Below, in pieces: positions 13,447 to 43,344 of a DNA stretch of 64,000 nucleotides. The stretch comes from Candidatus Geothermincolia bacterium (lineage in GTDB: Bacteria; Actinomycetota; Geothermincolia; Fen-727; Anoxymicrobiaceae): positions 16,826 through 80,825 of the forward strand of contig JBBQKJ010000007.1 of assembly GCA_038326775.1 (NCBI GenBank), given 5' to 3'. The position numbers and the translations under genes are program-made. The notes below the pieces were generated by a model, which worked only from the letters and a program-made list of their open reading frames with translations, searched no databases and had not been told where the DNA came from. How positions within the stretch are numbered: position 1 is the stretch's first letter; the number at the start of each line of letters is the position of its first letter.

Positions 13447-13469
13447 GAAAGTAACCTGACCCCGATGTT
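13447..13469. repeat. Solo copy of the 15-mer TGACCCCGATGTTGC (arm-like fragment of the palindromic element family)
   Basis: Exact 15-mer shared with 63134-63148 and, as an inverted copy, with 63057-63071. It shares the core CTGACCCCGAT with the 94-bp elements. Confidence 0.45.
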
Positions 13470-13492
13470 GCACGGACGGAGGCGGCAAGCGC

Positions 13493-14140
13493 GTGAGGTC
13501 CCTCGTTCAGTTCCTTATGAGCCTCGACCGGTCGGTGTTCCAAGGCATCAACTCGCTTGCCGGTAAGTTCTTCCTTATTGACTGGCTCGCCCGCGTCGGC
13601 GCCGACGACCATATCGTACCAATCGTTCTGGCCCTGCTGGTGCTGTTCCTCGTTCTCCTGGCGAGGAACCGCCGCCAGAGGGAATCCGCCTACACCTGCG
13701 TGATATGCGCGGTGCTCGCCGTGACCCTGTCGATGGTCATACTCTTCACGTTGAACGCCGCCTTCTTCAGGCCGAGGCCGTTCACCACGCAGCCGGTCAG
13801 GCTGCTCCTCTACCATAACACCGACTCGGCCTTCCCTTCCAACGCTGCGACGCTGGCGTTCGTGCTGGCGTTCGCGGTGTTGCTCTACAACCGCGCGGTC
13901 GGCGCGGTGATGCTGGGGCTGGCGGCCTTCCTGGGGCTTTCGCGAATCATTGTGGGGGTACACTATCCCCTGGACATCATCGGCGGGGCCCTGTTGGGTC
14001 TGGCGTGCGCCCTTCTCGCGGGAGCGGCCGAGCCTCTGTACCGCCCGCTCGCCCGCGGCCTCAACTCGGCCACCGACCGGCTGTTGGCCTCGTGGAGGCG
14101 CCCCGGCGCCTTCGAGGCGCGAGGGGGCGGGGGCGGATGA
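13493..14140 (+). CDS. PAP2 superfamily phosphatase (phosphatidic acid phosphatase type 2 / undecaprenyl-diphosphatase-like)
   Basis: Six TM segments. PAP2 motifs: FPSNAAT corresponds to the PSGH region and SRIIVGVHYPLDIIGG to the SRxxxxxHxxxD motif. Confidence 0.72.
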   Translation: MRSLVQFLMSLDRSVFQGINSLAGKFFLIDWLARVGADDHIVPIVLALLVLFLVLLARNRRQRESAYTCVICAVLAVTLSMVILFTLNAAFFRPRPFTTQPVRLLLYHNTDSAFPSNAATLAFVLAFAVLLYNRAVGAVMLGLAAFLGLSRIIVGVHYPLDIIGGALLGLACALLAGAAEPLYRPLARGLNSATDRLLASWRRPGAFEARGGGGG

Positions 14141-28999: not shown

Positions 29000-29062
29000 G
29001 TGTGTTACATTATAGCACTATATAGTAATATATTATAATATTGTCAACTAATGTGACTTTTG
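29000..29062. promoter_or_regulatory. Sharp AT-rich island (ttatagcactatatagtaatatattataatattgtcaactaatgtgac) in the xerC upstream region
   Basis: About 80% AT over 55 bp inside a 66% GC genome. It lies 130-190 bp upstream of the xerC start and contains TATAAT-like and TTGTCA-like hexamers on the minus strand. Its function was not established. Confidence 0.3.
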
Positions 29063-29247: not shown

Positions 29248-30351
29248 TCAGGTTGCCGCGTTGTAGTAGTTGCCGCCAGGGCCACGGACCACCGCGCCAC
29301 TTACCTCCATCCGCGAAAGGACGGCGAGCACCTCGGCGGTTGTGAGGCCGGCCTCCTTTGAAAGCCCTTCGACCTGGGAGATTCCGCCGGCCATGGCAAG
29401 CGCGAGCTTCTCCTCGGAGGGATGTGCCGGCGTTGTGAGCGCCGGCCGGAGTGGCAAACCGGTCGCGGGCGCGTCAAGCCCGAGTTCGGCCAGGATGTCA
29501 GCCGGTCCGGTTACCAGCGAGGCGCCGCTCTTTATGAGCGCGTTTGCGCCCCTGCTGCTCGGGGAGAAGAGCTGGCCCGGCACGGCAAATATCTCGCGTC
29601 CCTGCGCCAGCGCGAAGTCAACCGTGATAAACGCGCCGCTTTTCTCTGACGCCTCGACGACCACTACCGCCAGGGACATCCCTGCGATTATCCGGTTCCT
29701 CTCCGGGAAGCGGGGCCTTGCCGGAGGAGTCCCGGGGGTGTACTCGGAGATGATGCAGCCGTCTCTGGCGATGCGACGGAACAGGGAGGAGTTTGACCTG
29801 GGGTATGCGACATCGACCCCGCAGCCGAGAACGGCGGTGGTGAACCCGCCGCCCTCAAGAGCGCCCGAATGGGCGGCGGAGTCGATACCGTACGCCGCTC
29901 CGCTGACCACGTTGACCCCTCGGAGGGCAATCTCCCTGGAAAGCCAGCGCGCGACCTCCAGGCCGTAGGGGGTCGCCTTGCGCGAGCCCACCACCGCCAC
30001 GCTCGCTGCCTGGCCCGCCAGGCGCCCCCTGTAGAAGAGCACCCACGGCGCATCGCTCAACTCGTCGAGCATCGTGGGATAGCCGGGCTCTCCCCGCACC
30101 ACCGCGGATATGCCGCCCTCCTCCATTGACTCGAACTCGGTTTCGGGGTCACGCTCGAGGGCCATCTCTCGCCAGCGAGAGAGCGGCTCTGCGGAAGCGC
30201 GGCCGCCGGCCTTTCCCGCGCGGACCGCGTCCCACGCGCCGGCCGGCGACCCGAAGAGCGTAAGCAGGTCGCGAACCCGCTTGTGGGTGGCGCCCGGAAG
30301 CGAGCACAGGGCTACGAGCTCGGCCTTCTCCCGTGGCAGGGCGGGGTCCAT
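29248..30351 (-). CDS. dprA: DNA processing protein DprA (Smf)
   Basis: Rossmann-like DprA domain (VVGSRKATPYG...GVNVVSGAAYGIDSAAH...). The start ATG (30349-30351) overlaps the comM stop as ATGA. The upstream 70 residues of the maximal ORF are Arg/Gly-rich junk. Confidence 0.85.
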   Translation of the reverse strand: MDPALPREKAELVALCSLPGATHKRVRDLLTLFGSPAGAWDAVRAGKAGGRASAEPLSRWREMALERDPETEFESMEEGGISAVVRGEPGYPTMLDELSDAPWVLFYRGRLAGQAASVAVVGSRKATPYGLEVARWLSREIALRGVNVVSGAAYGIDSAAHSGALEGGGFTTAVLGCGVDVAYPRSNSSLFRRIARDGCIISEYTPGTPPARPRFPERNRIIAGMSLAVVVVEASEKSGAFITVDFALAQGREIFAVPGQLFSPSSRGANALIKSGASLVTGPADILAELGLDAPATGLPLRPALTTPAHPSEEKLALAMAGGISQVEGLSKEAGLTTAEVLAVLSRMEVSGAVVRGPGGNYYNAAT

Positions 30352-31901
30352 CAGCCCCTGGCCCCGCAGGTGAACATCGACCTCTCGAGACAGCGATACT
30401 GCACCGCCTCGGCGATGTGCTCGACCTCCATGGTTTCGCTGGCCGCCAGGTCGGCGATGGTGCGCGCGACCTTGAGGACCCGGTGATATGAGCGGGCGGA
30501 CAGACCCAGCCGCTCGACCGCGAGCCCGAGAAAGCGCTCGCCCTCGACCGAAGCCCGGCACAGCTTCTCCACGAGAGCGTGGGTCATGGACGCGTTGCAG
30601 TAGGCGCCGGTGCCCTCGAGGCGTGCCTCCTGGAGCCTTCGGGCGGCGATCACCCTCCGGCTAACCGAGCTGGAGTTCTCGCCGTGTGACCTCTCCTGCA
30701 GGTGGCGGCGGGTCAGGCGGGGTACCTCGACCTGGATGTCTATGCGGTCGAGAAGGGGCCCCGAGATGCGCGAGCGGTATCTCTGGATGTCACCCACCGC
30801 GCAAACACACTCGTGGCGCGTGTCGCCGAGGTAGCCGCAAGGGCAGGGGTTCATGGAGGCGACCATGCTGAAGCGGGCCGGGTAGGTGACGGTGACCATC
30901 GAGCGGACTAGTGTCACCTGGTTGTCCTCCAGCGGCCCCCGCAACGACTCGAGGGCGTTGCGGGGATAGAGCGTGAGCTCGTCGAGATAGAGAACGCCGC
31001 CGTGCGCCAGTGAGACCTCCCCGGGCTTGGGAAGCGGTACGCCTCCGCCGATGAGACCTACGGCGCTGATCGAGTTGTGCGGCGTGCGGAACGGCCTTGA
31101 GTCGATGAGCGAGCCGCCCGGCGGGACCAGCCCGGCCACGCTGTGTATGCGGGTCACCTCGAGCGCCTCCTCGAGGGAGAGCGGCGGCAGTATGCCCGGC
31201 AGGCGCCGGGCGAGCATCGTCTTCCCCGAGCCCGGCGGCCCCACCATGAGCAGGTTGTGCCCTCCCGCCGCTGCCACCTCTAAAGCCCGCCTGGCCGCCT
31301 CCTGACCACGGACCTCAGCGAGGTCAGGGCCCATCGCGCCACGCACGGTAAGCCTGTCGCCGGGCTCGCTGACAGCCTGCTCAAGACAGAGAGTGCCCTC
31401 CAGGAAACCGACCGCTTCGCGAAGGCTGCCCACCCCGTAGATCGGGATGCCGGAAACCAGGGCGGCCTCACCGGTGTTGCCGGCGGGCACCAGCAGGAAC
31501 GAAGCCCCGCGCTCCCGTGCGCCGATGGCGATGGAGAGCGCGCCAGGTATCTCGCGGACCCTGCCATCCAGCGAAAGCTCGCCCGCCGCCTGAAAATCGG
31601 TTGCCTGCTCCAGTCGAAACTGGCCGGTCGCCTCGAGAATGGCGAGCGCTAGAGGAAGGTCGAAAGAAGGCCCCTCTTTCTTGATGTCCGCCGGGGCCAG
31701 GTTCACATGGATGCGGCGGTTTGGAAACTCGAAGCACGAGTTGCGAACCGCTGACTTGACCCGGATGCGTGACTCGCGCAGGGCGGCATCGGGCAGCCCC
31801 ACTATCTCGAACGCCGGCAGGCCGTTGGTTATGTCGACCTCCACCTCGATGGCGTGCGCTTCCATGCCCACCAGCGTCGCGCCGAGTACCTTCGCTAACA
31901 A
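30351..31901 (-). CDS. comM: YifB/ComM family Mg-chelatase-like AAA+ ATPase
   Basis: MLAKVLGATLVGMEAHAIEVEVDITNGLPAFEIVGLPDAA... Walker A GPPGSGKT. C-terminal ComM signature. Confidence 0.9.
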   Translation of the reverse strand: MLAKVLGATLVGMEAHAIEVEVDITNGLPAFEIVGLPDAALRESRIRVKSAVRNSCFEFPNRRIHVNLAPADIKKEGPSFDLPLALAILEATGQFRLEQATDFQAAGELSLDGRVREIPGALSIAIGARERGASFLLVPAGNTGEAALVSGIPIYGVGSLREAVGFLEGTLCLEQAVSEPGDRLTVRGAMGPDLAEVRGQEAARRALEVAAAGGHNLLMVGPPGSGKTMLARRLPGILPPLSLEEALEVTRIHSVAGLVPPGGSLIDSRPFRTPHNSISAVGLIGGGVPLPKPGEVSLAHGGVLYLDELTLYPRNALESLRGPLEDNQVTLVRSMVTVTYPARFSMVASMNPCPCGYLGDTRHECVCAVGDIQRYRSRISGPLLDRIDIQVEVPRLTRRHLQERSHGENSSSVSRRVIAARRLQEARLEGTGAYCNASMTHALVEKLCRASVEGERFLGLAVERLGLSARSYHRVLKVARTIADLAASETMEVEHIAEAVQYRCLERSMFTCGARG

Positions 31902-32042
31902 TTCCGCCTCCGCGGTTGAGCATTACAAGCATATTATAAGCTAAGCAAGCACATCGGACAAGCCTGCGCCGTTGATGAAGTGCGGTGTAAGTCGAAAGCA
32001 CCCCGTAAGAGGGGTGGCTCTGGTGGCCTGGCTCGTGTTGTT

Positions 32043-32857
32043 TCAGCCGGCACGGAGCTTTGGTTTGACGCTCGCGGGTGCGTTGAAACCCGAGTACGCG
32101 CCCCTGGTTGTAACGGTGACCTCCGGCGTTTCGGCGATCGACGGAATTGTGACCTTCATCAACACCCGCTTCATCCGCATGGTCGCCTTATCGACGGTTA
32201 TCGTCATGTCGGTCTTGCCGTTAGGGTTCGAGTAGACGTCCAGGCCGTAGGTGGAAGGCTGCAAGTGCCCTGTTCGGGCCCCACGATGGCGGACGCGCCC
32301 AGCCGGTACTTCTCACCCATAGAAAAGGATATCGTGTAGTCATGAGCGGTCTGGCTTTCGAGCGCGCAGTTGTCCACCAGGTCGGCGAACCTTGCTATTA
32401 CGCGGCGCGCATTTGCGGAGACCATACCGGGATCGCCTTCGACTCTGTACCAGTCACTTCCCTCGACCCGCGTGTACCTCACGCCGTCACGGGTGTATGT
32501 CTCGTAAGAACCGCCGGGGGAATCGACCACCATGTGCCCGTCGAGGGCGCCACCTCCGTTGGAAGCAAGCTCGGTGGTGAAGGCGGCCTTATTGTCCAGC
32601 TCCGGCCTGCCCGCTATATCGAGGCTGGTGGTGCCGCTATAGCGATAGCTCTTCAACGAGAGTAACTCCTCGACTGAACGCGCCAGCACCAGCGCGGGCG
32701 TCAGCTTCAGGCCCTCATCTACCGCGCAGCCGGCCGCGAATAGGAGCGAGAAGGCCGCCAGGGCCGCGGCCACCGCGACCGCTGCTCGTTCGAAAGCGGC
32801 CGGGGTACTCTCGGCGCGGCGGTTGCGTCTAACACGAGTCATCCTGCCCTCAGCCAT
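32043..32857 (-). CDS. Putative lipoprotein split by a frameshift (two frames: 32204-32857 and 32043-32264)
   Basis: Signal peptide plus lipobox (LLFAAGC|A) after MAEGRMTRVRRNRR. The beta-rich mature domain continues convincingly in a second frame (LQPSTYGLDVYSNPNGKTDMTITVDKATMRMK...) after a G4C3 homopolymer run near 32265-32285. The frame-1 tail (CSLPPTAWTSTRTLTARPT) looks non-protein. Confidence 0.4.
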
Positions 32858-33057
32858 GGCCAGTATCCACCTCCAGCCGGAGTTCTCGCGGCATGTCTCG
32901 GCAGGTTGCCCGGCCTTCTCCAAGGCAACTGTTGAGAGTTCAAAGATGTTCCGGTCCGACTTGCAGAGATTACTGTCCCCGGACAACAGAGAACCAGGTG
33001 GCCTGTAGGCGACATGACAAGGCCGGGTGACGAGAAAACTATGGAATCTGCTCAACC

Positions 33058-33843
33058 GTGTCGAAAGGTACTACAAGTGGTTTGATGCTGGCATCGCAAG
33101 GGTTAATTGATGGATGTCGGCCTACCAGTTGCCTCATTCAGCGAGAGCTTGGCCTTGGCAACTCCGGGATATCATGCATGACAATTAATACCACGTGGCT
33201 CAGCTTCCTGTCGGGTCTGGATGTTTGCTCCAACCTGCTTGCGACAGGACGCCACAAGAAGATCCTTATAGTCTCCTCTGATATCTCATCGAACAATCTT
33301 AACTTCAAACACCGGGAAAGCAGCACCCTTTTCGGTGACCTGGCGGCGGCGGCCGTTCTGATCCGAACGCCGGAAGGTGAATCGAGTTGTGTCCACGCGG
33401 CCCACTTCGAGACCTACGGATATGCGGCCGGGTTCACGCAGATCCCCGGCGGCGGAACACGCCTGAATCCCATTTTTCCCGAGACCAGGAAAGAGGATTA
33501 TTACTTCCAGATGGATGGTCCGTCGGTGCTGAAATCCACGTTGAAACACGCTCTGGATTTCCTGGAAAGACTGCGGCCGGGCCTGTCAAAAGGGCTTGGT
33601 GACATCAAGCTGGTCGTACCCCACCAGGCCAGCAAAGTGGCGCTTGAAGCCCACAGCATTTTTGGAATGGACCAGGATCGTGTAGTGAAAACGATCGAGA
33701 CGGTCGGCAACTGTATCGCGGCCTCGCTTCCAAACGCGCTCTACGAGGCGATAAAACAGGGCCGGCTCGCCCGTGGGGACAAAGCACTGCTTCTGGGCAC
33801 GGGTGCGGGGCTGACCCTGGGGGGAATGATACTCACATATTGA
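33058..33843 (+). pseudogene. FabH (KAS III)-like ORF, N-terminally truncated (about 80 residues missing) and lacking the canonical active-site Cys motif; possible gene remnant
   Basis: Aligns with E. coli FabH residues about 80-317. His (VPHQAS) and Asn (VGNCIAAS) of the triad and the C-terminal GTGAGLTLGG are present. The region corresponding to AACAGF reads NTTWLSF. An in-frame stop at 33028-33030 precludes a longer N-terminus; the first start-like codon is the GTG at 33058. Confidence 0.55.
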
Positions 33844-33968
33844 AATCCAACGGGGATAGCCAGGCTCGGTTTACCTGGCGCTCCACGGAAAGAGCCGCGG
33901 CTTCAGCAAGCCGCCGGGTGTCGACCGTCCCACTGAAACTGTAGTTGTACGCCTGCTTCACCATTCAG

Positions 33969-35762
33969 TCACCCGTCTTTGCGTGCCGCTCGAGCAATCC
34001 GGAAAAGGTAGTCCGTGCCGAACCTCCGCAGGAGGTTGAAGTCGTCGTGATCGGCGGCCCAACCGAGCACACTTTGGAGCCGCGCGGGCTCCAGGAGCTT
34101 TCCGTGCACTATCACAAACTCGACCCCCTCCTTCTTGAAGAAGTCAACCGCTCCCTGCGACGGGAAGTCGCTGGTCGCCTTCACCCCTTTATAGTAGGAG
34201 TCGGGTATGAACCCGCTGTAGCCGTTGAATATCCTCTTCCAGTGAAGGGTCGAGAAGTAGGTGTACCAGGCCTCGCGCGGGGCCCAGGTTTCCTCGTACT
34301 GCAGCCCGGCGGCGTAGGTCCGCTGGTTGTAATCGGCAAGCGGGAGCTCGACGGTCGGTGTGGGGCCGGGCTGGTTCTTTAGCCAGGTGTAGACCGCCGG
34401 GAACTCCTCTTTGGGCGGCACCTCGAACATCGGAAGCCCCGCCGACATCAGGTCGGTAAGGAGAAGCGCGAGTATCAGGACCGTGGCGAGCGCGGAGAGG
34501 ACCGCCTTGCCTTTTCGCTTCGAGAGCCAGGAGAGAATGCCCCTGACCGCAAAGCCGGAGAGCACCGCCAGGGACAGCGCAATGAGAACGACGAAGCGTG
34601 GCGGGACGCGCATGACCTTGAACCCGGGGAAAAGGTGGTAGAAAAGCTCGTATGGCATTGGCAGGTCAAGCCTGTGTCCGAAGATGAAAAGGGAGCTGCC
34701 CAGGCACATCACGAACGAAGCCGCGATAAGCGTGACGTAATAACGGACGTCAAAACGGGCGGCGCCCTTTCCCTTTGCGAACAGGTACGCGGCACCCGCC
34801 GCCCCGAGGATGAGGGGGACCAGGCCCGGGAAAAGGGAGCGCTCTGTCTGCCCGCCTCTCTTGTTCGTCCCTTCACGCAGGCCGGCGGCAGTCTTCCCCC
34901 AGAGCTTGTTCTCCGCCGGGGCCACCGCGAAGTCCGTCACGTCCGCGCTGAAAAGGTCGACCTCCCCCATCTTGCGCTCAAAGCGCTTCTGCCCGCCCTG
35001 CACCCGCAGGTAAGGCATGGCGAACGGGAGGATTATCGCGCCCGCGAACGCCAGCACGACCACCAGGCTCAAGGTCCACCTCAAGGTGAACGCCCGCGGC
35101 TTCATGACCAGCCGTACCACCAGGAAGACCAGGATCGCGAACGCCAGGATCATGGCGTAGTACCAGGTCGAGAGCGCCTCCAGCACGAAGAAAAGCCCGC
35201 AGAGGACAGCGTCGACCGGCTTGCCCTCCTCCGAGTACCGGTGCAGGAAAAGCAGGCATAGCGGGATGAACGCCGCGGCCGATAGCTGGAGGTGCCCCAT
35301 GTGGGCGAGCCTCGCCGGCGCGAAAGCGAAGGCGATGCCGGCTACCACCCCCGCGGTCCTGCTTCGCGTCAGGTGCACCACGAGGAGGTAAGCGCCCACC
35401 TCGCAGAGGAAGAAGTTGAAGATAAGCATGTAGTTGGCCGTCTGCATCGGGTTACCTGTGATGCCCAGCAGGGGCAAAGCCATCACCGCGGTCACAAACT
35501 GGTGGTCGGAGTACGCCAGGGTGTCGGGGTTCGGGAAGAAGATGTTGGCGTTAAAAAGGTTGAAAGGGTTCTGCGTTATGGACCTGGCGTCCCAGGCCAG
35601 CGTCCAAGCCTGGAAAGTCGGGTCGTAGGGGTTCTTGTAGGCATGGTCTCGCCCCTGGGTCAACAGCGGCCGGGTGAACACCATCGCAAGCAGGATGAAC
35701 GCCAGTATGATGACGAGCCCGGGCCCTCTTTTCCTGATGAATCCCGCGAACTTCTTACCCAT
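33969..35762 (-). CDS. Large polytopic membrane protein, GT-C-fold glycosyltransferase-like (YfhO/ArnT/PMT-like) with C-terminal extracytoplasmic domain
   Basis: Roughly 12 predicted TM helices. N-terminal loop PYDPTFQAWTLAWDA...NIFFPNPDTLAYSDHQF. C-terminal soluble domain of about 200 aa. Start placed at MGKKFAGFIRKRG. The family call is tentative. Confidence 0.45.
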   Translation of the reverse strand: MGKKFAGFIRKRGPGLVIILAFILLAMVFTRPLLTQGRDHAYKNPYDPTFQAWTLAWDARSITQNPFNLFNANIFFPNPDTLAYSDHQFVTAVMALPLLGITGNPMQTANYMLIFNFFLCEVGAYLLVVHLTRSRTAGVVAGIAFAFAPARLAHMGHLQLSAAAFIPLCLLFLHRYSEEGKPVDAVLCGLFFVLEALSTWYYAMILAFAILVFLVVRLVMKPRAFTLRWTLSLVVVLAFAGAIILPFAMPYLRVQGGQKRFERKMGEVDLFSADVTDFAVAPAENKLWGKTAAGLREGTNKRGGQTERSLFPGLVPLILGAAGAAYLFAKGKGAARFDVRYYVTLIAASFVMCLGSSLFIFGHRLDLPMPYELFYHLFPGFKVMRVPPRFVVLIALSLAVLSGFAVRGILSWLSKRKGKAVLSALATVLILALLLTDLMSAGLPMFEVPPKEEFPAVYTWLKNQPGPTPTVELPLADYNQRTYAAGLQYEETWAPREAWYTYFSTLHWKRIFNGYSGFIPDSYYKGVKATSDFPSQGAVDFFKKEGVEFVIVHGKLLEPARLQSVLGWAADHDDFNLLRRFGTDYLFRIARAARKDG

Positions 35763-35864
35763 GCCCGTGATTATAATAAATCTGGCCTCAATCCTGTCTC
35801 GTGAAGCTTCGCTGAAAGACGCGGGGACGGTTTGCGGATGCATGTACGCCGGCCCGGACCCCCG

Positions 35865-36227
35865 CTAAAACGCGTCCGGGATGTGGCGGAGCTCGAGCAG
35901 TTCGCCGTCCGGGTCGAACAGCACGCTTATGACGTCGAAACGAACCTCGGGCGAGCGTCCCTCGGACGCCAGGTACTCCATGGCGAGGCCCCTTATCCTT
36001 CGCGTCTTGGCCGGCGTCACCGCTTCTTCCGGCTCGCCGAAGGTCCGGCTGCGCCTGGCCTTGACCTCCACGAACACGGTGAGCCCTCCCGCGCGGGCGA
36101 TCATGTCGAGCTCGCCCGTCCGCGTCCGCCAGTTACGCTCGGTGATGCTGAAGCCGTGGTCCTCGAGGTAGCGGCACGCGATGTCCTCCCCCAGGATGCC
36201 CAGGGCCCTGCGGTCACTCTTCGGCAC
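35865..36227 (-). CDS. yraN: YraN family (UPF0102) endonuclease
   Basis: GILGEDIACRYLEDHGFSITERNWR...ELDMIA...VFVEVKARR is the YraN signature. Conserved neighbour of comM and rnhB. Confidence 0.8.
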   Translation of the reverse strand: MPKSDRRALGILGEDIACRYLEDHGFSITERNWRTRTGELDMIARAGGLTVFVEVKARRSRTFGEPEEAVTPAKTRRIRGLAMEYLASEGRSPEVRFDVISVLFDPDGELLELRHIPDAF

Positions 36228-42484: not shown

Positions 42485-42693
42485 GCCTCTCCTCCTTTTC
42501 CCTGGCCCCGCTGGACCAAATGCTGAATTCCTCGCTTTTACTCTCAGATTTGACCGTTCCGGCTGATTTACCTTAACAGGTTTCGCCGGAGCCCGCCCTC
42601 TGACCTCCCTGCCCAACTCGGAGGAAATGCTTCTTTCGTCTCGAAGGGGGACGCGGTATATACTTCACACAGCGCTATCCGGGAGGAGCAGAC

Positions 42694-43344
42694 ATGCCTG
42701 AGGATTTTGATGACGTGCGACACGGCTACTACGAATCCCGCTGCGAGGCGGCGGTCAAAGCGCTGGGGAAGCGCTGGTTCGAAGCCAGGTGGTTCGATAA
42801 CCAGGAGAGGGCGGCCGAGGCGGTCCTCGAGCTCATCCCACGAGGCTCGAAGGTCGGAGCGGGGGGGTCTGTGACCCTGCGGGAGACCGGAGTGCTGGAG
42901 CTTCTGGAGGAGCGCGGCGACGAGGTCGTGTACCACAGGCCGGAGATGGGATTTGAGGAGAGCCTCGAAGTTCGCAAGGAGGCCATCACGTGCCCGTACT
43001 TCCTCTGCTCGAGCAACTCCATAACCATGGAGGGAGAGCTTATCAATACAGACGGCATGGGAAACAGGGTCGCGGGAATGATTTTCGGGCCTCAGACGGT
43101 GATAGTGCTCGCCGGCGCCAACAAGCTGGTCGAAAACCGCCAGGAGGCGTTCTCTCGCATAAGGAACGTCGCCGCGCCCGCCAATGCCCGCAGGCTGGGC
43201 ATGGACCTGCCCTGCGTGACGAAGGGGCGCTGCGTGGACTGCGGCGAGCCCATGAACATATGCAGGGTGACCACTATCATCAGCCGCAAGCCGATACTGA
43301 CCGACCTCAAGGTCTACCTGGTCGCCGAGCCCCTCGGCCTGTGA
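42694..43344 (+). CDS. LUD-domain (LutC/YkgG-like, DUF162) protein
   Basis: Length and blocks (...VGAGGSVTL...GANKLVEN...) resemble LutC-family proteins. A CxxC pair lies near the C-terminus. The family was assigned from memory. Confidence 0.5.
   Translation: MPEDFDDVRHGYYESRCEAAVKALGKRWFEARWFDNQERAAEAVLELIPRGSKVGAGGSVTLRETGVLELLEERGDEVVYHRPEMGFEESLEVRKEAITCPYFLCSSNSITMEGELINTDGMGNRVAGMIFGPQTVIVLAGANKLVENRQEAFSRIRNVAAPANARRLGMDLPCVTKGRCVDCGEPMNICRVTTIISRKPILTDLKVYLVAEPLGL

Follow-up and report, generated by a model that had tools for sequence, protein, structure and literature searches.

Genes between yraN and comM in a Geothermincolia genome: a membrane protein with a GT-C fold, a broken lipoprotein gene and a fabH fragment

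The window analysed here is a stretch of 64,000 nucleotides (nt) from contig JBBQKJ010000007.1 of a Candidatus Geothermincolia bacterium (assembly GCA_038326775.1). This work concerns the interval between its housekeeping genes yraN and comM, which holds an intact gene for a polytopic membrane protein of the DUF6311 family, a lipoprotein pseudogene and a fragment of a fabH-like gene. All three elements were already placed between the end of comM (31901) and yraN (35865) in a preliminary description. But how did they come to be there? The preliminary description took them for a lineage-specific block of 4 kb, inserted between two genes that are contiguous in related genomes. Comparison with those genomes points elsewhere: the interval is likely an old arrangement, shared at the level of the family and now in decay, not an acquired island. 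Its conserved core is the membrane protein, which can be assigned by structural modelling, with high confidence, to the GT-C (glycosyltransferase C) fold. The elements of the interval and its flanks are the following:

30351–31901, minus strand: comM/yifB, Mg-chelatase-like AAA ATPase, left flank (TIGR00368, 588.8 bits; PF01078, PF13541, PF13335)
31933–31961, minus strand: promoter-like site TTGTCC-17-TATAAT just upstream of comM, found by consensus scan; function putative
32043–32842, minus strand: lipoprotein pseudogene (LolA/LprG superfamily, divergent DUF6612 branch), recognised by tblastn against intact syntenic orthologs
32858–33128, no strand: spacer; the 32858–32922 side is conserved with a related contig (L094), 32923–33128 has no assigned source
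33129–33862, plus strand: dead fragment of a stand-alone FabH-like gene (β-ketoacyl-ACP synthase III (KAS III), PRK07204-type), codons 94–331 and 19 nt past the stop
33969–35762, minus strand: intact polytopic GT-C-fold membrane protein of 597 amino acids (aa), DUF6311/PTPS_related, conserved core of the interval
35865–36227, minus strand: yraN (UPF0102), right flank (PF02021, 106.8 bits; NF009154, 141.1 bits)

The DUF6311 membrane protein and its place in the family

The open reading frame (ORF) of the membrane protein spans 33969–35843. It extends to an ATG at 35843, but homologs and gene calls favour the start at 35762, giving about 597 residues (598 in the preliminary description, which also suspected a GT-C-like protein). 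Is it one? The AlphaFold2 model, built on an alignment of 58 homologs, is of high quality (mean predicted local distance difference test (pLDDT) score 95, predicted template modelling score 0.93). Searched with Foldseek against the PDB, it returned 24 matches at E ≤ 1e-3, every one a GT-C glycosyltransferase (STT3, AftD, DPY19, PglB, ArnT, AftA and ALG12), and its polytopic core can be superimposed on the solved GT-C enzymes. Sequence profiles are far less telling. PTPS_related (PF10131) is reached marginally, with 27.5 bits against a cutoff of 26.4 and only over profile positions 15–167 of 621. DUF6311 (PF19830) is the precomputed domain of P0001, a database protein identical to the window ORF; a local Pfam scan did not return PF19830 for the window protein. 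YfhO (PF09586) gave no match to it at E ≤ 0.1; precomputed PF09586 matches exist for three of 120 homologs (P0036, P0044 and P0056). The translated protein has no WWD and so lacks the oligosaccharyltransferase motif WWDxG, for which reason it is filed at the superfamily level only.

Two sequence features stand out among the homologs. Asp47 is invariant in 36 of them; in the set of 58, which reaches down to 23% identity, its conservation is still 90% or more. The other is a conserved C-terminal motif, HWK[KR][IL]xNGYSG. In the model Asp47 sits at the start of a helix (residues 46–64) in the first outer loop, shortly after the first transmembrane helix (residues 2–29). This loop should face outward, because the N-terminus is rich in Lys and Arg and would stay inside by the positive-inside rule.

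The genomic position of the gene is as conserved as its product. Homologs come from metagenome-assembled genomes (MAGs) of Actinomycetota labelled Ca. Anoxymicrobium japonicum, Ca. Anoxymicrobiaceae and Ca. Geothermincolia; the family Anoxymicrobiaceae is placed within the class Ca. Geothermincolia. The population of the window itself is also present in other assemblies, namely L013 (100% identity over 6.4 kb), L004 (99.94%) and the Joint Genome Institute (JGI) contig L095 (98.9%). Context look-ups and a scan of species-representative genomes yielded 14 distinct loci that show both yraN and comM (L001, L002, L005, L006, L007, L015, L016, L017, L020, L021 and L023–L026; L003 and L014 duplicate L002). 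In all 14 of these Anoxymicrobiaceae-type loci the DUF6311 gene lies between the two flanks, with 54–90% protein identity to the window, and in four relatives the lipoprotein gene lies there too. The flanks are therefore not contiguous in relatives, contrary to the earlier assumption, and because the DUF6311 gene is present in every related yraN–comM interval it is a family-level fixture of the housekeeping cluster. Its codon composition is native as well: GC content at third codon positions (GC3) is 0.84, within the range of the neighbours (0.74–0.89), whereas the lipoprotein gene (0.72) and the fabH piece (0.66) lie lower. Of the checks proposed for the inserted block, synteny and base composition speak on this point; the first largely found relatives with the same genes at this position, and the second found no deviation for the GT-C gene. 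Outside the Anoxymicrobiaceae-type family (≤44% identity; Chloroflexota, Acidobacteriota and others) DUF6311 homologs stand in unrelated contexts, often as tandem copies.

The DUF6311 family has further copies. Genomes of the Anoxymicrobiaceae-type family hold a second DUF6311 paralog, about 60–64% identical (L018, 7947–9755; L019, 2535–4217), and the paralogs P0026 and P0007 share one 679-kb contig. The neighbours of the second paralog in L018 (an aminotransferase, a methyltransferase and a sulphur-transport protein) were considered as a clue to function and are uninformative. Distant homologs form tandem arrays of two or three copies (L062, 3638–8279; L065, 8001–12912; L093, 80–3038; L027, 8001–10876) in MAGs labelled Bifidobacteriaceae, Vicinamibacterales and Actinomycetota. 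One duplicate locus, L014 (DYIU01000002.1), is labelled 'Acidimicrobium ferrooxidans', a label that looks doubtful; its whole rplS–xerC cluster is collinear with the window at 62–82% protein identity.

A broken lipoprotein gene and a fragment of fabH

The lipoprotein gene was described as frameshifted, and so it is. Its N-terminal part (32204–32842) begins at the ATG at 32842 (or 32857), encodes the lipobox LFAAG↓C and stops at 32204, while the rest of the homology, the C-terminal part, is read in another frame down to 32043. The first ~190 and the last ~70 codons are thus in different frames, and both are homologous to intact orthologs of 244–278 aa (tblastn with intact syntenic orthologs gives 47–55% identity in two frames). 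Alignment with P0242, an intact ortholog of 72% identity on L094, places the lesion, a deletion of 1 nt, near 32264. The same frameshift occurs in P0241 on the separately assembled JGI contig L095, together with an extra 15-nt deletion, and for this reason the lesion is taken to be real. There is no slippery heptamer at the frameshift site.

Intact orthologs, with equivalents of the lipobox LFAAGC, occupy the same slot in L001, L002/L014, L020 and L022; ten related loci lack the gene. In one of these, L007, the closest relative, the 3' end of the gene survives as a relic: the spacer there aligns with the last ~25 nt of the gene and the sequence downstream. No such relic was detected in the DUF6311–comM spacers of L005 and L015–L017. 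The lipoprotein gene is thus ancestral, dispensable and, in the window, broken. On the other side of the gene, about 65 nt by its start (up to 32922, where the blastn match stops) are conserved with L094, and by this sequence match they are probably its native 5' region.

What would the intact protein look like? The AlphaFold2 model of the ortholog P0242 (not of the broken window copy) has a core pLDDT above 90 and shows a half-barrel of the LolA type. Its best match in the PDB is LprG of Mycobacterium tuberculosis (E 1e-7, TM-score 0.57–0.59), followed by RseB, LolA and LolB. All ten relatives scanned pass the threshold of DUF6612 (PF20316), with 28–59 bits against 23.7; PF07161 (LppX_LprAFG) reached 17.3 bits against a threshold of 24, in one relative only. 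The fragments of the window copy match no family in the family scan. By sequence the lipoprotein family forms a divergent branch of DUF6612, and a small one, with 84 representatives among 1.84 billion proteins.

Some further observations touch this gene. In L094 a nucleotidyltransferase gene (NTP_transf_2, toxin-antitoxin-like; 1493–1979) lies downstream of the intact lipoprotein ortholog, and a weak 150-nt match to the comM start region of the window (31785–31933) marks another rearranged variant of the interval. An ORF of 87 aa on the plus strand (31972–32235) runs antisense to the 3' part of the pseudogene; it is called as a gene in L013, matches no family and is probably spurious.

The FabH-like piece has an open frame of 261 aa (33058–33843). 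Its nearest intact relative, the 331-aa protein P0122 (L010; MAG fen_727, GCA_003154635.1), is 84.5% identical in nucleotides and 86% in amino acids, and the protein alignment covers only residues 93–331, which agrees with the earlier view of a truncated remnant. The edges of homology are sharp, with 33129 (codon 94) as its first position and 33862, which lies 19 nt beyond the stop, as its last. Nothing upstream of 33129 corresponds to the first 92–93 codons, of which neither the reading of all frames nor a sensitive alignment of nucleotides gave any trace; a resemblance of the string LMLASQG there to the missing 5' part was rejected, as the nucleotides do not support it. Within the remaining part a TGG codon for Trp (33196–33198) stands in place of the TGC of the catalytic Cys117 (NTTWLSF here, HTTCLSF in the intact gene), a change also present in L095. 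The His and Asn motifs are kept; a complete thiolase fold with the Cys-His-Asn triad is not. Accordingly, the PRK07204 profile NF005541 aligns over positions 90–329 only, with 246.6 bits against a cutoff of 402. Because the intact P0122 also scores below this cutoff (362.6 bits), it is, judged by its sequence, a FabH-like relative rather than the equivalog itself. The ratio of nonsynonymous to synonymous substitution (dN/dS) between fragment and intact gene is 0.15 at a dS of 0.57, and a relative-rate comparison shows the window branch to be slightly faster. The low ratio reflects the history before inactivation and, together with the slight acceleration, fits a recent loss of function.

Where does the fragment come from? 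It is absent from the yraN–comM interval of every relative. In fen_727 (L016) the order is yraN–DUF6311–comM with nothing extra, and the intact FabH-like gene lies elsewhere, between esterase and LytR_cpsA_psr genes; another homolog lies beside a CN_hydrolase gene (GCA_041890195.1). With such different contexts, a conserved home locus for the gene was rejected. A search of 5.8 billion proteins found nothing more than 86% identical to the fragment except the fragment itself. A functional pairing with DUF6311 was also considered, as a FabH homolog is convergent to a DUF6311 homolog in two Anaerolineae loci (L075 and L079); FabH there belongs to a housekeeping fabH–fabF–plsX cluster, and the adjacency is due to chance. 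As far as the sequences compared here tell, only the fragment (~0.73 kb) and ~0.3 kb of flanking DNA without an assigned source (~205 nt at 32923–33128 and 106 nt at 33863–33968) are specific to the lineage of the window. The lineage specificity claimed earlier therefore stands for the fabH fragment and falls for the GT-C and lipoprotein genes.

Inheritance, deletion and insertion

The nearest relative, L007, is 92% identical to the window in nucleotides and 90% in protein. Compared with it the window does have extra DNA, as the preliminary description held, but this amounts to 2.0 kb (31969–33966) instead of 4 kb; L007 has 96 nt there. Is this an insertion in the window or a deletion in L007? 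Since the L007 spacer aligns with the 3' end of the lipoprotein gene and with the comM promoter region, the difference is best read as a deletion in L007. The comM-upstream motif GCTTGCTT..GCTTATA.T is kept in L005, L007, L015, L016 and L017, and this promoter-like stretch is conserved in relatives with or without the lipoprotein gene.

The converse would be that the 2.0 kb are a cassette of lipoprotein gene and fabH piece which entered the lineage of the window, as might happen through recombination with a less closely related genome. The two closest sampled relatives, L007 (90%) and L005 (75%), both lack the lipoprotein gene, as this scenario would have it, and the GC3 of both cassette genes is below that of the neighbours. 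However, a cassette inserted into an empty site does not account for the remnant of the lipoprotein gene in the 96-nt spacer of L007, nor for orthologs in the identical slot in relatives at 57–70% identity. The low GC3, for its part, fits relaxed selection on dead genes and is also seen in the intact fabH homolog (0.59). An insertion of this kind is improbable. The preferred reading, an old arrangement with a deletion in L007, leaves some room in its chronology: the fabH piece may have arrived before or after that deletion.

Are the two broken genes really dead? One could argue that the frameshift is a sequencing error or programmed, and that the truncated, Trp-containing FabH-like protein serves as a non-condensing subunit; its 261-aa frame is still open, its dN/dS against the intact homolog is low, and gene callers predict products for both genes. 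Yet the JGI contig, assembled separately, shares the frameshift and has lost a further 15 nt, the site offers no slippery heptamer, and the FabH piece is without both the nucleophile and the 92–93 N-terminal residues of the thiolase fold. The low dN/dS speaks of the time before inactivation, and the window branch is slightly faster by relative rate. We find it very hard to believe that either gene is functional. The weakest proposal, a recently acquired island comprising the whole 4 kb, is scarcely credible: comM and yraN are commonly adjacent in Actinomycetota outside the Anoxymicrobiaceae-type family and the block has a slightly low GC content (0.603; window, 0.639), but the GT-C gene holds the same position in 14 of 14 related loci, the lipoprotein gene does so in four, the GC3 of the GT-C gene equals that of its neighbours, and there is no repeat, integrase, insertion sequence (IS) or tRNA to go with an island (xerC is a syntenic housekeeping gene).

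Mobile elements were looked for specifically. No flanking repeat exceeds 21 nt and the longest is imperfect, there is no tRNA and no Rfam RNA beside the block or the fabH piece, and neither an IS nor an integrase stands next to the piece, so that nothing here qualifies as a genomic island or mobile element; the earlier statement that flanking IS, integrase and direct repeats are lacking was accurate. The likeliest route by which the fragment arrived would be illegitimate recombination.

The interval is a variable spot in the Anoxymicrobiaceae-type family (L023, 3411–7322; L024, 3816–7883; L025, 3472–7860; L020, 7519–7878; L021, 7562–9990; L026, 10008–12427). Three relatives have a secreted DUF5719 protein of 1355–1462 aa between yraN and DUF6311, one has a DUF5719 fragment of 119 aa, and two have a pair of a flavin adenine dinucleotide (FAD) oxidoreductase and a PIN (VapC-like) toxin between DUF6311 and comM.

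In the window the surroundings are those of a housekeeping cluster. Beyond yraN, the ORF listing and family scans show rnhB, lepB, rplS, trmD, rimM, a KH-domain gene and rpsP, all on the minus strand. In the coding-composition survey the fabH piece is the sole coding-like plus-strand element across ~28 kb (~14.1 to 42.6 kb), the nearest others being 13460–14140 and 42604–43344, which bears out the remark that it is the only plus-strand gene in more than 20 kb. Minor features include a second promoter-like site on the minus strand (GAGACA-16-TATTAT, 35773–35800), a consensus match only, which ends ~10 nt upstream of the favoured DUF6311 start at 35762; if it is a promoter, it would give a DUF6311 mRNA that is leaderless or has a very short leader and is separate from yraN. 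On the other side of comM, the longest ORF of dprA (29248–30561, minus strand) shares 211 nt with comM; as the dprA of relatives begins only 4 nt within the end of comM, the true start in the window is probably near 30354. A stretch of 56 non-coding nt between dprA and xerC (29001–29056) is 78.6% identical to L002 13424–13479 in the same intergenic position; these nt match no Rfam family and may be a conserved regulatory element.

A putative role in the cell envelope

What might the DUF6311 protein do? By analogy with solved GT-C enzymes, it would act on the outer side of the membrane, moving a sugar from a donor linked to polyprenyl phosphate to an acceptor in the envelope, which could be a glycolipid, a glycopolymer or a protein. 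In its first outer loop, the invariant Asp47 is a candidate for the acid that catalyses the reaction or binds a metal; the outer domain of ~150 aa at the C-terminus may help to hold the acceptor. The ancestor of the family probably had the lipoprotein gene directly downstream of the GT-C gene, and the role of the lipoprotein was likely to carry an acylated glycolipid, as LprG does. The gene has been deleted in most relatives and, in the window, the deletion of 1 nt has made it a pseudogene. As for the fabH fragment (734 nt, truncated at its 5' end, its active site dead), illegitimate recombination probably placed it between these two genes, where it is without function. While fold, conservation, synteny, gene lesions and base composition were seen directly in the models and sequences, we infer the donor, the acceptor, the catalytic residue, the partnership of the two proteins and the arrival of the fragment from such analogies and from the layout of the locus.

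How does this compare with known systems? To the solved GT-C(A) enzymes that use lipid-linked sugars (STT3/PglB/AglB, Pmt1/2/4, AftD, AftA, ArnT) the window protein is only 10–16% identical; unlike the oligosaccharyltransferases it is without WWDxG, and it is much smaller than AftD. Another comparison is with the YfhO/GtlB-type enzymes of Firmicutes, likewise bacterial GT-C proteins of similar size from a Gram-positive lineage. In the three-component glycosylation of teichoic acids in Firmicutes, a polyprenyl-phosphate sugar is made inside, flipped and used outside (PMC5836110, PMC8035078). By analogy the same donor logic would be expected for the window protein, which differs in not matching PF09586 as some of its homologs do; also, unlike in those systems, no gene for a CsbB-like glycosyltransferase family 2 (GT2) protein or a GtcA/GtrA-like flippase is seen near DUF6311 (~8 kb, relatives).

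The lipoprotein has its own point of comparison. LprG of M. tuberculosis, of the LppX_LprAFG family, is a glycolipid carrier, and its structures (PDB 3MH8/3MHA) include one bound to phosphatidylinositol mannoside (PIM). Like LprG, the lipoprotein is a lipobox protein of Actinomycetota with a LolA-like half-barrel (in the model of the intact ortholog); it differs in that identity is 14–15%, the sequence family is a divergent DUF6612 branch and the window copy is a pseudogene. FabH/KAS III enzymes of the PRK07204 type (NF005541), finally, resemble the fragment closely, since it is 86% identical to the intact 331-aa member over residues 93–331 and keeps the His and Asn motifs; the first 92–93 residues are gone, the nucleophilic Cys is Trp and the score is below the family cutoff.

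A role in a cell-envelope glycoconjugate, suggested in the preliminary description from the lipoprotein and the GT-C-like protein, is reasonable, the more so as the intact lipoprotein ortholog folds like LprG. One could go further and suppose that the genes for the GT-C protein of DUF6311 and the LprG-like lipoprotein of DUF6612 were, in the ancestor, a module of two within a so far undescribed pathway of Geothermincolia for an envelope glycolipid or lipoglycan; the enzyme would add sugar to an acceptor anchored by a lipid, which the lipoprotein would carry outward. The module would be embedded in the rplS–lepB–rnhB–yraN–comM housekeeping cluster and perhaps co-transcribed with it. The interval does collect other envelope genes (the large secreted DUF5719 proteins) in sister lineages. 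We offer the module tentatively and consider it rather doubtful.

Several points weigh against this account of the locus. The idea that the GT-C protein works together with the lipoprotein is drawn only from adjacency in four or five genomes and from fold analogy, and most relatives do without the lipoprotein gene. A family-profile sequence search of the PDB found no relative of the DUF6311 protein, and a literature search on DUF6311 found no paper and no enzymatic, donor or acceptor evidence for any member. Neither a GT2 polyprenyl-phosphate sugar synthase nor a flippase gene occurs within ~8 kb in relatives; with no gene for donor synthesis or flipping nearby, the pathway would be otherwise unlinked. 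The fabH piece, as said, may have come before or after the deletion in L007. It could even be that the GT-C-fold protein is not an enzyme and acts as an inactive scaffold or substrate-binding subunit, as PIG-U/GAB1 does in the glycosylphosphatidylinositol (GPI) transamidase, or in a transporter-like manner, which we judge unlikely.

What does the locus tell us about this group of bacteria? What appeared to be a horizontally acquired envelope island is better explained by vertical inheritance and quite ordinary gene decay, and is not to be counted as an acquisition event. The uncharacterised family DUF6311/PTPS_related can now be assigned to the GT-C fold, with an Asp that is a candidate for catalysis. 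Members of an uncultured actinobacterial class keep its gene at one place among housekeeping genes, at times beside an LprG-like partner, and studies of the cell envelope in Geothermincolia can start from there.

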